From the IMG/VR virus record IMGVR_UViG_3300021963_000060, positions 35,523-99,522 of that record: a stretch of 64,000 nucleotides of DNA; one strand, written 5' to 3'. The position numbers and the translations under genes are program-made. This document shows positions 35,101 to 58,542 of this stretch, piece by piece (position 1 is the stretch's first letter; each line of letters begins with the position of its first letter). The stretch is from a virus. The notes beneath the pieces are model-generated. The model saw nothing but the letters and a program-made list of their open reading frames with translations. It was not told the origin of the DNA and searched no databases.

Positions 35101-38100
35101 AGAAAGACTGTAAGTGTCTATATTAAGCAATTCTGAAGTTGGAGAATATGTTTCAGGTAAAGATGTTGTACTTGTGGAATTATATGGATTTGCAGTGAAA
35201 ATATCTGTTGGTTCATTATATGGACCATATCTATGATTAGCAACAGCAGTTCTGAAAACAATCTGAGTAGGAGTTACACCTATAGTTGGATTTTCAAAAG
35301 TAGAAGAATCCATCACAGTACCAATAACAGTTTCTCCAACTTCAAATGTACCAGAATTCATAGTGATTTCTAGTAATTTTGGAACAATATACTCATTAAC
35401 GTCTTCACCATCAAAGAAAGCATAAACTTGAGTAAATGGTTTAAATCTCTTTCCAGTAAACTCAACGTTTCTAGATCTCATATATGAAATGAAATCTGTT
35501 GCGATAATAGAGTCTCCTTGAGAGTAAGTATTTACTTGCTCCGTAAGTTGCATTCTAGTACCTTCTCTAGTTGAGGTACCGGTTTTAGTAGTTGTAGCAA
35601 CTGTGGTATATGATCCCCAACCACCATACCATCCCCAAGGATAACCATAGTAGTAGTAAGGATATCCATATCCCCACCAACCATAATAGTGACCCCAATA
35701 TCCATGATAATATGGGTAACCATAGTAACCATAGTAGTATGGATATCCATATCCATAGTATCCGTAGTAAGGCCATCCATAATAATATCCATTCCAATAT
35801 GAATTATATGTTGTGGTCTCTCCTGTCCAAGTAGTTTCCCAAGCACCCCATGTAATTGGACTATAACCAGTCTGTGGGTCCCAACCAGCAGCAACTAATT
35901 GTTGTTGTGTTTGTGTAAAGTTATCAATTTCTACATTTTTAGCATCTGCTCTAACTTGGTCTACCCAAGTATCAGAAGATGGATAAAGTTCAATAGTTCC
36001 ATTATACCTTGTAACAAGATATGGAGTTACGTTTTCAGTTCTTGTCGCAAATGGTTGTTGAACTTGTACAACGTGCTCATAATCAAGAGTAATCATTTGA
36101 CCAGTTCTCTTGATATTATTTCCGATTAAATCAGTAACATATCTTGGATCTGCATTAGGATCAACTGAAGTTCCAATTCCAACTAAAGAAGAAGATCCTA
36201 AAAGTAAATCAACTTCGGTAGTATATGGAGCAGGTCTTAATTCACCATTCTTAGAGTCAATACTATTTTTAACAATAGTTATTTTACTTTGAGATGTTGT
36301 AGTAGTAAAATCGTCAACAAAAAATCCAGATTTAAATCTATCTAGACCATTAGCATCCTTAATTTTTAAATTCTCTGTATTAGTCTCAAGTAAATTAAGA
36401 GTAGTATATGATTCTAGATTCTTAATTCTCTCCTCTAGTTTAGAGATATCTTTCATTTGATATCTCTTATGTGGAGTAATATTTACTGTTGCTCTAGAAG
36501 CATCGCAAAGATATGGTGGTAAAGTTACAGTTGCAACTTCTAGTGCGTTTTCAACCAGTTGAGGAGCTTGAGGAATCTCAGATGGTTCACCCTTTACTAA
36601 TTGGAAAGTACCATCCTTAGTTAAGAAAATTTTATCAATTCTGGGAAGATAATATGAATAACTTAATACAATTGACTCATCGGATGCTAGTACATTTTTA
36701 GCACTATTTCCAGAGGAAGTAAATGATCTAGCTAAAAATTCAAAAGGAGATCTGTTTGCAGTTTGAATATTATATGGAGAAACCCTTGGTCTAGCATCGA
36801 TAATATCTGTATTATTGATACTTTCTTTAGCAAAAGTAACAGTGCAATAATCAAATTGATTATATGAATCTGCAGTGGTTATATCTCCAGTATCCGAACT
36901 AGCAAATGATGCAGATTCGTAAATTATTCTTATCTTTTTGGTTGGTTCTTTAGCCTCAGGTTTTCTAATTAACTTAGCATAATCATATATTGTTTCTTTT
37001 TGTCCATAATCGAAGGAAAAGTCTGGAAGAATACTCTTATCACCTAACGTAGTGTCTCCAACTACTGCTTCAATTCCAGTTTCTCTGAATTTTACAATCT
37101 CACCTTGTTGAAGTACCCTATTATTCAAATAAGAAAATTCTGCTTTTAGATCATTAATTCTACCAACATAAATTGCTACAGCACCACTATCCCTTCCAAT
37201 AAATTCTTCACCTGGAATTAAATCATTAACTGTTCCTGTTGGTCCAGATAATGTCGATAGACTAACTGTTGGTAATAAAGGATCCTGAACACCAGAAGAT
37301 TCTAAAATACCATAAACTCTAGTAATTTCTGGAACCATTAGACAAATTTCTTCGTCCTGAACTCTAGTTCCATATGGGAAATTACCAACTTCTAATCCAT
37401 CATTAACCGTAGTGCTTCCTATACCAGAATAATCGTATCTGGATCTATTGAGCACTATAGAATTAATTCTATTTTTAATCTTTGTTTTAGATTTTATATT
37501 TACTTTTCTTAGGGTAGCAATTAATCTTGCTTGTGGATCATTAGATCCAAGGCCATAAATTGTTAGTTCTTTAGACGCATTTGTGAATACAAACTTATCT
37601 TGTGTTAGAACTTCAAATGCACCATTTGATCTTACTAAAATATATCTTTCCTCATCAAATGGTAAGAATGTTTCCCCACTATCTGCAGTAACAGTGCTAG
37701 ACTGACCACTTGTAATTGTAATGGGATATTCTTTTCTTATTGTTATAGACGAATCTGTTAGATCAACAGAGGAAATATAAGGTCTTGGTAGAGAAGTGAA
37801 TAAGGTATTATCTGGAGATGGTTGGAAGTTGGATGCTAAAATTGATAATTCATTTAGATCAGTTTCTGATGTAGGTAGTGAACCATCACAAACTCCAGAA
37901 ACACTAGTAATTCCAGCAACAGTTATAGTTTTCTCTTGTACTGTTAAAACTCTGTTAAGAGTTGGAAGATCTCCATTTGGTTTTCTATAACTGATTAAAC
38001 CACCTTCTTTTACTTTATTAATAAAAGTAAAATCATTATCTACAGTAAGGCTAACTGTACTGATACCACTAACATTCTTGGATATCTTAGAGAAACCTAC

Positions 38101-55782: not shown

Positions 55783-56184
55783 TTATCTTACTGACTGTAA
55801 TGCAAATGATAATCTTTGAGGTGATACATCAACGCCTATGATTTGATACTTAAGATTAATATCAAAGGTGTTTTCATCATAATTTGGAATGGTAATACAT
55901 TCAATTATAGTAACTCTAGGTTCATATTCTTTGATCAATCTTATAACTTCATCATTTAGAATATCTGCAGAGATATTATCAACGTTTTCAAAGATTGTTC
56001 TAGAAACCCTGGATCCAAAATCTTGGTTAAAGAATTTTTCACCAGGGATAGTATAAACTAGATTTCTAATAGATCTTGCAATCGCAGTCTCATTCTGTAT
56101 CGTAATTAAATCCTTGTTTAAAGGATTCACCTGAAAAGACAAACTAATGTCTTTAAACCCCTTGCTGATACGCTGTATGGGCAT
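55783..56184 (-). CDS. g25: Baseplate wedge gp25
   Basis: FKDISLSF, AIARSIRNLV.T.PGE.FF..FGS, YEPRV. Confidence 0.92.
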   Translation of the reverse strand: MPIQRISKGFKDISLSFQVNPLNKDLITIQNETAIARSIRNLVYTIPGEKFFNQDFGSRVSRTIFENVDNISADILNDEVIRLIKEYEPRVTIIECITIPNYDENTFDINLKYQIIGVDVSPQRLSFALQSVR

Positions 56185-56206: not shown

Positions 56207-56213
56207 TATTTAT
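56207..56213 (-). promoter_or_regulatory. Late promoter for the baseplate operon
   Basis: ATAAATA upstream of the g25 start. Confidence 0.65.
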
Positions 56214-56218
56214 TAAAG

Positions 56219-56446
56219 TTAAGACCATTTCTTAGAATAGATTGGTTCAGTCCCATACTCCCAATCATCATAGTCATCGTCGTTTCTTATCTTCTCATGA
56301 ATTTCATTCTGAATGTTGAAATTATGCTTCTTACTCTCTTTAGTTTTTTCATTTAGTCTCTCAAATGCACCATAATCAGTAATAAGATTGGTTGTTCCCC
56401 ACATCTTGTACATGTAATCTGCATCTCGATCTGTAGGTTTTTTCAT
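56219..56446 (-). CDS. Hypothetical protein
   Basis: 75-aa ORF with AGGAG Shine-Dalgarno (SD). Confidence 0.7.
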   Translation of the reverse strand: MKKPTDRDADYMYKMWGTTNLITDYGAFERLNEKTKESKKHNFNIQNEIHEKIRNDDDYDDWEYGTEPIYSKKWS

Positions 56447-56501
56447 TTTTTTCTCCTGATTTGAAACAATCAGAACTTTTTACGGGGTTCCTATCCCGTC
56501 A
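56444..56501 (-). promoter_or_regulatory. Putative cis-regulatory RNA (H-type pseudoknot plus SD-sequestering hairpin)
   Basis: ACGGG-ATAGGAAC-CCCGT-AAAAA-GTTCT; competing stem TTCTGATT/AATCAGGA. Confidence 0.45.
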
Positions 56502-57093: not shown

Positions 57094-57228
57094 TCAATCA
57101 GAACTTGATGTATTATCTAGTTGTTCTGAAGTTTGTTCTGCTGGGATCTCTTCAGTTTTTTTCTGAAAACATGCAAGTACACCAGCGACCCAACTATAGA
57201 TTGTATTCTTAGACTGTTCTTCGCTCAT
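57094..57228 (-). CDS. 44-aa hypothetical protein (not in ORF track)
   Basis: MSEEQSKNTIYSWVAGVLACFQKKTEEIPAEQTSEQLDNTSSSD; ATGA overlap with the upstream ORF; fills the gap exactly. Confidence 0.5.
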   Translation of the reverse strand: MSEEQSKNTIYSWVAGVLACFQKKTEEIPAEQTSEQLDNTSSSD

Positions 57229-57368
57229 TTACCTTGGCCTCGATATTTTTTCTTAGCAGGATTGCTACTTGTTGCGGCATATTTTGTGTGTTTCCCAAGA
57301 CCCTGACGGGTAGACTTGGGTTTAGATTCAATTTTTTGTCCGCCATTAAAAGAAGGTCGCTTAGCCAT
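57225..57368 (-). CDS. 47-aa highly basic protein (not in ORF track)
   Basis: MAKRPSFNGGQKIESKPKSTRQGLGKHTKYAATSSNPAKKKYRGQGK; GGAGG SD upstream. Confidence 0.75.
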   Translation of the reverse strand: MAKRPSFNGGQKIESKPKSTRQGLGKHTKYAATSSNPAKKKYRGQGK

Positions 57369-57519
57369 CAATTTCCTCCATGTCTATTTCATTAGGGTCA
57401 ATAGTATCATCTCCCTCAAAGTATTTTAGAGCGAGATCTTGTAGAATATCAGCACATTCTTCATAAGTCAAGTCTTGATAGATCTTACGACCTTTGTATA
57501 GAATGTTGATCTTTTTCAT
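57361..57519 (-). CDS. Small hypothetical protein
   Basis: Probable start MKKINILY at 57519 (TGATG overlap with the upstream stop). Confidence 0.65.
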   Translation of the reverse strand: MKKINILYKGRKIYQDLTYEECADILQDLALKYFEGDDTIDPNEIDMEEIDG

Positions 57520-58301
57520 CAGATGATTCGTGTCTTTTCGTGTCCAACTCTGATACGAGGATCGCACCAGATTTCGAAACCTTCTTCCTTTGCATCAAGA
57601 CAGAATGATACGTCTTCACCGCACATGTCTTGTACTGCTCCGGATTCGAAGACTTGCATCTTAGGTGCAAACCAGGGATATTCGAGATTCTCAAATACAC
57701 CTTTCTTAATCAGTACCCAACCGAAACCAGTATAGTCTACGGTGAAAGGCTTACGACGCTTCTGAATTGAATCTACGGTTTCGTGATTCATGACTCCACC
57801 ATTACGACGGAAATCATCTTCATCCAACCAGTGAGCTACGGATGTCGTATGACCATCTTCTGTAGCGTACCAACCAGCAGCAATCTCTCGTTCTACAACA
57901 TTACCTTCTTCATCAGCAGATAGTGCTAGATCACAGAGTTGCCAGAATTTTTCAGTATTGAAAACAATATCACTATCAATCCAGAGTTGATAATCATACT
58001 GTAGTTTGCCGTCCCAGGGAATCTGCTTTGGACCCCTCAGAACGTTTGCTCCGAGACATTTGCAACGAGCAAAGTTTACCATTGATGAGTAATCCTGAGA
58101 AATTTGGATACTCATTCCGTTCTGCACTAGATCAAAACACAGTTGCACAAATGCTTTCAGAAAAGTAAATGAACATCCCCTACCAGGTAGGCAGAATACA
58201 ATCGACTTCCCTCGCATTCTTTCTTTGATAGCATCATAATCCCATTCTTCTTTGGGTGCTGTAATGGGACTTTTTGCTTTTACAGTGAATCCTTTAGCCA
58301 T
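57519..58301 (-). CDS. Conserved cyanophage GT2-like glycosyltransferase
   Basis: WIDSD DxD motif, TGFGWVLIK..VFE, GEDVSFC, VGHEK. Confidence 0.75.
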   Translation of the reverse strand: MAKGFTVKAKSPITAPKEEWDYDAIKERMRGKSIVFCLPGRGCSFTFLKAFVQLCFDLVQNGMSIQISQDYSSMVNFARCKCLGANVLRGPKQIPWDGKLQYDYQLWIDSDIVFNTEKFWQLCDLALSADEEGNVVEREIAAGWYATEDGHTTSVAHWLDEDDFRRNGGVMNHETVDSIQKRRKPFTVDYTGFGWVLIKKGVFENLEYPWFAPKMQVFESGAVQDMCGEDVSFCLDAKEEGFEIWCDPRIRVGHEKTRII

Positions 58302-58350
58302 AAGTTTCAGTAACCTTCAAGATCAATTTTATCGTCTTATTTATGCTTTG

Positions 58351-58542
58351 TCAATGTGAGGCATCCTCGAATATTTTTCGATTCACACTCAGTTCCTCAA
58401 AGCTCAAATCTTCGATATTATAGTCGGTTTTCATTAGACCTACCATATTTTTTAAAGTCATCCAAATCACAGGAAACTCGTCCTCACTCACAGAATGGAA
58501 GAGGCACCGATCCTTAGCATAAATGTGATATACTTTTTCCAT
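58351..58542 (-). CDS. Small hypothetical protein
   Basis: 63-aa ORF, co-directional with neighbours. Confidence 0.65.
   Translation of the reverse strand: MEKVYHIYAKDRCLFHSVSEDEFPVIWMTLKNMVGLMKTDYNIEDLSFEELSVNRKIFEDASH

Follow-up and report, generated by a model that had tools for sequence, protein, structure and literature searches.

The preQ1-I riboswitch (RF00522) is a very small H-type pseudoknot of about 27-34 nt that lies directly upstream of the ribosome binding site (RBS) and acts on translation; its first stem (P1) is rich in G-C pairs, an A-rich loop (L3) runs in the minor groove of P1, and the 3' side of the loop reads AAC and then CCC. A functional precedent in T4-like phages is the gene 32 mRNA of T4 and T2, in which a compact H-type pseudoknot in the leader is read by the protein gp32 and governs translation initiation. 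The guanidine-III riboswitch (ykkC-III) and other pseudoknot ON riboswitches are compact aptamers whose folding is proposed to free a nearby Shine-Dalgarno (SD) sequence, and in the T4-even phages an intercistronic hairpin between genes 26 and 25 (Nivinskas, Malys) reportedly brings a distant SD near the AUG of gene 25 and thereby activates it. Here we describe an element on the minus strand of a 64,000-nt stretch of virus DNA (IMG/VR record IMGVR_UViG_3300021963_000060, positions 35,523 to 99,522; the whole stretch is called the window hereafter), which combines a predicted 27-nt pseudoknot with a hairpin over the RBS of a small open reading frame (ORF) that precedes the gene of the baseplate wedge subunit gp25. 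The element is a real and strongly selected cis-regulatory RNA of T4-like cyanophages, apparently uncatalogued so far, and it is likely to act as a structural switch if the versions that depend on a further factor and those that do not are taken together.

All of the preQ1-I features listed above recur in the element as it is proposed to fold and act. With the gene 32 operator it has in common the T4-like phage background and a compact leader pseudoknot next to the site of initiation, but gene and sequence differ, and whereas the T4 pseudoknot nucleates cooperative binding on an unstructured A/U-rich leader, the leader of the element can fold into a competing hairpin. A gp32-type autoregulatory operator was rejected, as the downstream gene codes for a modular hypothetical protein of 45-96 aa and not for gp32. 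The freeing of an SD by a compact fold is the point of likeness to guanidine-III, to which there is neither sequence similarity nor an Rfam match, and the viral, structural context of the element differs from the detoxification context of guanidine-III. As in the gene 26-25 region, an RNA structure would control translation initiation near gene 25 of a T4-type phage; the hairpin described here, however, hides the RBS of a small ORF distinct from gene 25 and is in competition with a pseudoknot.

Like glnA (glutamine), manA, wcaG, PhotoRC-II and abiF, the element is a conserved cis-regulatory RNA candidate of T4-like cyanophages, but none of these motifs overlaps its locus. The paper on phage S-CREM1 names glnA, manA, wcaG, PhotoRC-II, CFrI and abiF as cyanophage RNA motifs and annotates S-CREM1 itself with abiF, wcaG, manA and glnA only, at other coordinates (PMC9964418). 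In our searches the S-CREM1 genome was found to carry the element at about position 95,075. A catalogue of more than 10,000 viral structured-RNA candidates mentions the gene 32 pseudoknot, and its main text mentions no such baseplate or cyanophage motif, which its supplementary tables could still list (PMC10690425). A permissive search of Rfam 15 (E ≤ 10) with queries of 801 nt and 71 nt gave chance-level matches only (snoRNAs, and RBS parts of Mu-gpT-DE and freshwater-2).

Conservation in T4-like cyanophages

We number the element N1, G2-G4, A5, U6, A7, G8, N9, A10, A11, C12-C15, N16, N17, A18-A22, G23, U24, U25, C26 and U27, where N1 is window position 56498 and all element coordinates refer to the minus strand. 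A core of 28 nt is unique within the window and within the 99.5-kb record. Using a 33-nt query, the core was found in 22 isolate phage records, all of them Synechococcus phages or cyanophage and always at one place per record, and an exact-pattern scan of IMG/VR, which yields a lower bound, returned it essentially unchanged in at least 120 contigs. When 951 nt were compared by blastn with 50,697 phage records, several Synechococcus phages aligned only over the element itself (~50 nt), while their flanking genes gave no alignment. The core thus recurs where the flanking coding sequence has diverged beyond blastn detection, and it is this conservation that sets the element apart from chance. An earlier reading of the window made from the letters alone (hereafter the sequence-only reading) had proposed a conserved cis-acting RNA on the sense strand, and these counts bear it out.

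A covariance model built for the element (R1) gave a single match of 44-52 bits in each of five genomes, with the next best score at 13.5 bits or below, so no extra copies were found in these genomes by this search. Of 72 loci that were selected by gp25 and not by the motif and had enough upstream DNA, 34 have the element and 38 lack it; the same model, applied to these 38 loci without a canonical core, found only one intermediate form, a locus with a longer L3 (L137). Carriers span marine, estuarine and freshwater cyanophages. Among cellular assemblies, covered with one genome per prokaryotic species, there were four matches (L125, L126, L127 and L128), namely an Acidimicrobiaceae metagenome-assembled genome (MAG), a Chlamydiae MAG and two short Synechococcus lacustris contigs. 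The Acidimicrobiaceae MAG and one of the Synechococcus lacustris contigs (L125 and L127) have gp25 homology beside the element and on this account look like cyanophage DNA; L126 and L128 could not be classified. With only four such matches, two of them with gp25 homology alongside, a cellular origin of the element was rejected, and the element appears to be phage-specific.

Architecture and variation of the proposed pseudoknot

The proposed pseudoknot starts with the P1 hairpin (56498..56483), in which the 5' strand CGGG (56498..56495) pairs with the 3' strand CCCG (56486..56483) around a loop of A5, U6, A7, G8, G9, A10, A11 and C12. A5 and U6 constitute L1, and the rest of the loop is the 5' strand of the second stem P2, A7 G8 (N9) A10 A11 C12 (56492..56487), with N9 at 56490 being a G in this sequence. 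P1 is followed by L3, composed of U17 and A18-A22 (UAAAAA, 56482..56477, with the AAAAA tract at 56481..56477), an A-rich linker expected to run across the P1 minor groove, and then by the 3' strand of P2, GUUCU (G23-U27, 56476..56472), which is the switching strand and is also used by the RBS hairpin. In the window P1 is longer by one A-U pair, contributed by the A of the TGA stop codon (56501..56499) of an upstream 196-aa ORF (phrog_3577 in PHROGs, function unknown). The resulting stem of ACGGG (56499..56495) and CCCGU (56486..56482) encloses the loop AUAGGAAC, and the extension is not conserved in relatives. Stem, loop, AAAAA tract and the complementarity of GUUCU to GGAAC in the loop had all been pointed out in the sequence-only reading and are indeed in the sequence. 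Its H-type topology stands as well, while its pairing register had to be amended: the G9-C26 pair is specific to the window, N9 being mostly C and sometimes deleted, and the conserved pair is G8-C26.

The conserved P2 accordingly comprises C12-G23, A11-U24, A10-U25, a bulged N9 and G8-C26, with A7-U27 as an optional pair. Its 5' strand abuts the 3' strand of P1 (L2 = 0), and P2 is thus stacked directly on P1 in the proposed fold. L1 would span the 4-5 bp of P2 with 2-3 nt and L3 the 4 bp of P1 with 6 nt, distances that fit the classical rules for H-type pseudoknots.

Variation was tallied over 147 unique elements, in all of which the GGG/CCC pairs of P1 are invariant. The closing pair N1-N16 is C-G in 117 of them, A-U in 12, U-A in two, and G-C and U.G in one each, with mismatches in 14; this pair covaries and occurs in four Watson-Crick types. 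Position N9 is occupied by C (97), U (18), G (15) or A (13) and is absent from four elements, and L3 reads UAAAAA (121), AAAAAA (12), CAAAAA (10) or UUAAAA (3), besides one 10-nt form ending in AAAA. We also scanned IMG/VR for copies deviating from the canonical sequence at one chosen position only. No contig was returned for A5, U6, U24 or U25, two were returned for C26 and 30 for U27, the latter with U27C. Both C26 variants keep P2 possible: in one of them (L217) C26U retains a G.U pair, and in the other (L218) GUUUC replaces GUUCU while N9 is A, giving a contiguous GAAAC/GUUUC and hence a compensatory register change. The Syn30 group lacks N9 and has a perfect AGAAC/GUUCU. The alternative hairpin of the U27C variants includes a pair between C27 and a G of the SD. 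A metagenome scan for U25 variants gave two matches, whose surroundings are unrelated in ORF layout (non-phage) or in base composition and which were treated as chance.

Covariation across cyanophage homologues, which the sequence-only reading had named as a check, was found at the closing pair of P1 and in the arms of the RBS hairpin; P2 shows the two rare variants, and GGG/CCC and AAC/GUU do not vary and are therefore uninformative on pairing. As judged from these alignments the formation of P2 is plausible and has some support, and we infer that it forms in vivo. The overall pattern, with A5, U6, U24 and U25 invariant, N9 free and N1-N16 covarying, fits a folded receptor, and a conserved core with invariant loop and junction nucleotides (no variants at the four positions just named, two at C26) is a trait of riboswitches.

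Taken by its outline the element might be a divergent preQ1-I riboswitch that senses preQ1 or preQ0. Size, H-type topology, the A-rich L3 and the AAC-CCC junction letters are alike, a resemblance drawn from general knowledge of the class, but RF00522 was not listed at E ≤ 10 for the 801-nt or the 71-nt query. The element has no L2 and no free specificity C, the position-equivalent C12 being complementary to the invariant G23. The regulatory logic is reversed too: in preQ1-I the 3' strand of P2 contains the SD and the pseudoknot is the OFF state, whereas in the element this strand is an anti-SD, complementary to the SD, and the pseudoknot is predicted to be ON. Moreover, a hypothetical small ORF, gp25 and gp6 follow downstream, with no queuosine or preQ1 genes among them, and the element is confined to cyanophages apart from the four cellular-assembly matches, at least two of which have gp25 homology. 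The kinship to preQ1-I that the sequence-only reading had considered was therefore given up, no family being returned even for the 71-nt query and the context having nothing to do with queuosine; we regard it as very improbable.

The competing hairpin and the predicted polarity

In the window the RBS-masking hairpin spans 56475..56454, with the 5' arm UUCUGAUU (56475..56468), the loop GUUUCA and the 3' arm AAUCAGGA (56461..56454). It covers the SD AGGAG (56457..56453), which lies 6 nt before the ATG (56446..56444) of the 75-aa small ORF. This 8-bp stem, noticed already in the sequence-only reading, is part of the minimum-free-energy (MFE) fold, and the mutual exclusivity of hairpin and pseudoknot that had been claimed with it is evident, since both use the 3' strand of P2. 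Together with P1 the hairpin makes up the MFE fold of -16.8 kcal/mol for 86 nt (ViennaRNA; z = -2.33 against shuffles), and the fold energy of this single sequence is only modestly unusual. Within the MFE fold the RBS hairpin alone accounts for -7.8 kcal/mol, and in the ensemble of nested folds the first two bases of the SD are paired in essentially all structures and the next two in 80-93%.

Among the relatives UCUGAUU/AAUCAGGA is one of several unrelated arm solutions, all of which use the 3' strand of P2. Type A comprises 91 unique sequences and joins UUCUGAUU(U) to (A)AAUCAGGA, frequently lengthened by G23-C and A22-U; 95.7% of the cells in the alignment are paired and four pairs change on both sides. 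A U25.G48 wobble is present in 84 of the 91 rows, which assigns the hairpin to the sense-strand RNA. Type B (17 sequences) consists of UCUGUU/AACAGA, where the final A is the A of the AUG, with an inner ACC(U)/(A)GG stem on the SD. Other phages have the arm pairs UCUAAUUC/GAAUUAGGA, UCUCCU/AGGAGA, GUUCC/GGAGC or UCUAUGU/ACAUAGA, and a further form employs the A tail and GUU in AAAGUU(C)/(G)AACUUU. Such a variable expression platform, made of distinct hairpins that share the 3' strand of P2 and exclude the pseudoknot, is again a riboswitch-type trait.

Folding was modeled for 137 unique variants. At least three of the bases G23-U27 pair downstream in the MFE fold of 97% of these sequences, compared with 76% of dinucleotide shuffles, and the mean folding energy is -6.7 versus -3.75 kcal/mol for the shuffles. 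The cost of opening the RBS, computed over positions -14 to +3 of the start, amounts to 3.0 kcal/mol when N1-U27 are unavailable and to 7.5 kcal/mol when the tail N17-U27 is free, so that in the model sequestering the 3' strand of P2 lowers the cost by about 4.5 kcal/mol. The difference exceeds 1 kcal/mol in 127 of the 137 variants and is reversed in none, and composition-matched shuffled tails raise the opening cost by 0.8 kcal/mol only. Within the folding model the family as a whole is thus predicted to have an open RBS whenever the pseudoknot is formed.

In a subset of phages (L011, L037, L038, L092, S-B43 [L131], Syn30 [L133] and Syn9 [L129]) the hairpin joins the A-rich L3 and GUU to a downstream AACUUU(U) and not to the SD. 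The predicted ON/OFF difference in these phages is about 0-1.2 kcal/mol, and their expression platform may work differently or by relay.

Genomic context

In every locus examined the downstream order is small ORF, gp25, gp6, and the core ends 21-30 nt ahead of the start codon of the small ORF. The upstream neighbour varies and can be PurM, one of various hypothetical genes, a structural gene or a late-promoter motif. Stop codons of upstream ORFs range from -39 to +93 relative to the element and are found just before N1 (as in the window), as UAG in the loop, as UAA of L3, in the loop of the hairpin or beyond the start of the small ORF. The sequence-only reading had suggested that a ribosome terminating at the upstream stop could operate the switch, and as a conserved feature this does not hold, given the spread of stop positions and a late-promoter motif instead of an ORF in about 13% of the unique loci. 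Upstream ORFs cross the element in all three frames or not at all, so the conservation is not a protein constraint, and coding constraint was rejected as an explanation with all three frames in use. Two further candidates were discarded, an intrinsic terminator because P1 is followed by an A-tract and not a U-tract, and a programmed -1 frameshift or readthrough signal because there is no conserved slippery site or stop spacing and some loci have no upstream ORF.

The position of the element at the border between a variable region and the conserved baseplate module would also suit a site acting at the DNA level, be it for protein binding, for recombination or as a homing junction at the edge of the structural module, and both stem halves are sequence-invariant, as such a site or a by-product of coding might be. 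The G.U wobbles of the hairpin (U25.G48), however, make it valid on the sense strand only, and the fixed distance to the start codon and the compensatory changes in N1-N16 and in the hairpin arms also speak for RNA; a by-product of coding is at odds with upstream ORFs that read the element in three frames or in none. We consider these explanations highly improbable.

A TAAATA core with its end 4-8 nt ahead of N1 takes the place of an upstream ORF in 19 of the 147 unique elements, and in 12 of these 19 loci N1 is an A paired with U16. The spacing of T4-type late promoters would place the start of the transcript at or within a base or two of P1. Going by this promoter-motif spacing only, late transcripts in the 19 loci would begin at or near P1, and where N1 is A the first transcribed bases would fall inside the stem. 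The pseudoknot could hence serve as a stabiliser that caps the 5' end of a late transcript or of a processed fragment against RNase E or RNase J, the RBS hairpin being secondary. Yet most loci, including the window, have no late-promoter motif near the element (the nearest ATAAATA upstream in the window is at 58344..58338 on the minus strand, none adjoining), and a mere stabiliser would need neither a fixed distance to the start codon nor a 3' strand with constant complementarity to the RBS region. We consider this role distinctly unlikely.

Downstream of the small ORF the window carries a late-promoter-like ATAAATA at 56213..56207 (minus strand), and relatives likewise have ATAAATA between the small ORF and gp25. 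The genes gp25-gp6 therefore probably have a late start of their own, and the element would serve the small ORF. For the phage translational ON switch just upstream of the baseplate operon that had been put forward from the sequence alone this means that the ON polarity is kept, as predicted for the 127 variants above, while the target becomes the small ORF.

A model for the proposed switch

We propose that the element is a two-state, cis-acting translational switch for the small ORF preceding gp25 in many T4-like cyanophages. In the ON state the 27-nt H-type pseudoknot would be formed, with P1 as NGGG/CCCN', AU as L1, P2 as AG(N)AAC/GUUCU and NAAAAA as L3 in the minor groove of P1; GUUCU would be locked away, leaving the SD and the AUG open. 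In the OFF state P1 would be kept, and GUUCU with part of the A tail would be freed to pair with the RBS region. Conservation, position and the covariation of P1 and of the hairpin are plain from the sequences compared, and the mutual exclusivity of the two states with ON polarity comes out of the folding model.

For the window the two-hairpin state was calculated at -15.2 kcal/mol, and the stacking sums of P1 and P2 are about -10.7 and -7.1 kcal/mol before a pseudoknot penalty is applied. Customary pseudoknot penalties are about +9 kcal/mol or more. Since nearest-neighbour energies favour the hairpin state, the ON state would be the less stable one in the absence of additional energy from tertiary contacts or a bound factor, and we assume that it is stabilised by something beyond base pairing. 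From the essentially invariant letters of the pseudoknot loop and stems we infer the need for a trans-acting factor, a small molecule or a phage or host protein, for which the pseudoknot would be a specific receptor and whose binding would turn translation on. This factor-stabilised ON switch for the small ORF is the reading that we rank first, tentatively and with a little less than even confidence, ahead of a switch without ligand that is kinetic or coupled to ribosomes.

The energies that call for additional stabilisation would equally suit a kinetic trap. As the 3' arm of the hairpin is transcribed later than the pseudoknot, the latter could form first, with the RBS open on the nascent RNA, until refolding or unwinding by ribosomes of the upstream ORF leads to the stabler hairpin, so that translation of the small ORF would be limited, timed or coupled. 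In most loci the upstream ORF ends just before, inside or beyond the element and ribosomes must cross it, and the three-way constraint between SD, anti-SD and anti-anti-SD can account for the invariance of P2. Compact triplex-type pseudoknots, such as the frameshift signals of luteoviruses, are sequence-constrained without any ligand. On the other hand, the variable stop position and the 19 loci with a late-promoter motif rather than an ORF argue against ribosome coupling as the general trigger, and the invariance of L1 (A5, U6) and of GGG/CCC exceeds the needs of a simple kinetic trap, for compensatory swaps would keep the pairing. We hold such a ligand-free folding switch possible, if rather doubtful.

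Several points weigh against the factor-stabilised switch. The regulated protein is a hypothetical one and hence offers no physiological rationale. Riboswitches typically control a number of genes related in function, the element a single locus; its lack of an L2 (L2 = 0) leaves no evident junction pocket like that of preQ1-I. The invariance of the core could stem from triplex packing and the three-way SD constraint without a ligand. Eight of the nine pseudoknot pairs never vary, and P2 rests on two rare variants and on complementarity rather than on broad covariation, while U27C breaks the A7-U27 pair with no compensation at A7. Finally, the hairpins of type B overlap P2 by U25-U27 only, and 10 of the 137 variants show no predicted ON/OFF difference.

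A bolder reading takes the 27-nt pseudoknot for an aptamer that would define a new riboswitch class, smaller than any known, and would sense a metabolite or ion of the infected cyanobacterium. We regard this as unlikely; if true, the translation of a small virion-assembly-associated protein would be switched on in response, a metabolite-gated late function in T4-like cyanophages. Should a ligand or a protein partner exist, the element would represent a new class of minimal riboswitch or else a new translational operator of phages, and should there be none, a clean natural case of a triplex-type pseudoknot acting as anti-sequestor. T4-like cyanophages are among the most abundant viruses of the ocean, and their post-transcriptional control is little known. 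The element is worth pursuing, being short enough to be synthesised and probed, conserved to the single nucleotide, absent from Rfam and built as a switch with a clear predicted polarity.

The small ORF and neighbouring genes

The small ORF of the window, the putative regulated gene, extends over 56446..56219 on the minus strand, and its 75-aa product consists of an N module and an acidic module with DYDDWEYGTEP. Throughout the loci the small-ORF products are hypothetical and assembled from modules. The N module, PVDRDxNYMxxMWGTTxLITDY, corresponds to phrog_1414 (function unknown), the acidic M module with DYDDWEYGTEP ends in IRNDEDYDDWEYGTEP, and an alternative C module contains RPCGGKGGFDDYVERWH; the arrangements observed were N+M, M alone, N+C and N alone. 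The element precedes all of these architectures and is therefore not tied to one coding sequence. It may mark the small ORF beside gp25 as a gene of tightly controlled dosage. No Pfam family was found in the 75-aa protein, and searches for a function yielded only phrog_1414 in PHROGs and only viral hypothetical clusters with a low-confidence model in the Atlas. The protein is predicted to be largely disordered.

The downstream neighbour gp25 (56184..55783, minus strand; Pfam PF04965, E = 1.4e-9) lies outside the switch. ATAAATA, the core of T4-type late promoters, occurs 20 times in the window, always on the minus (coding) strand, with 37.6 occurrences expected from shuffles; rarity and strand bias fit functional late promoters and avoidance elsewhere. 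A near-consensus sigma-70-like promoter (TTGACA-17-TAAAAT, 11 of 12 positions) at 58326-58354 on the minus strand overlaps an ATAAATA just upstream of a 260-aa ORF (57519-58301), and the gene block ending in the element and the small ORF may thus have both an early and a late start. Phages without the element often have the end of a small gene of the KKRYRGQGK type and a strong terminator-like hairpin, AAGGGACUC...GAGUCCCUUUUUU, ahead of the small ORF, as in L140 and L152 at about 300 nt upstream of gp25. A 48-aa ORF homologous to this small gene is found elsewhere in the window (57225-57371), which indicates that the gene order near the junction has been shuffled between phages.

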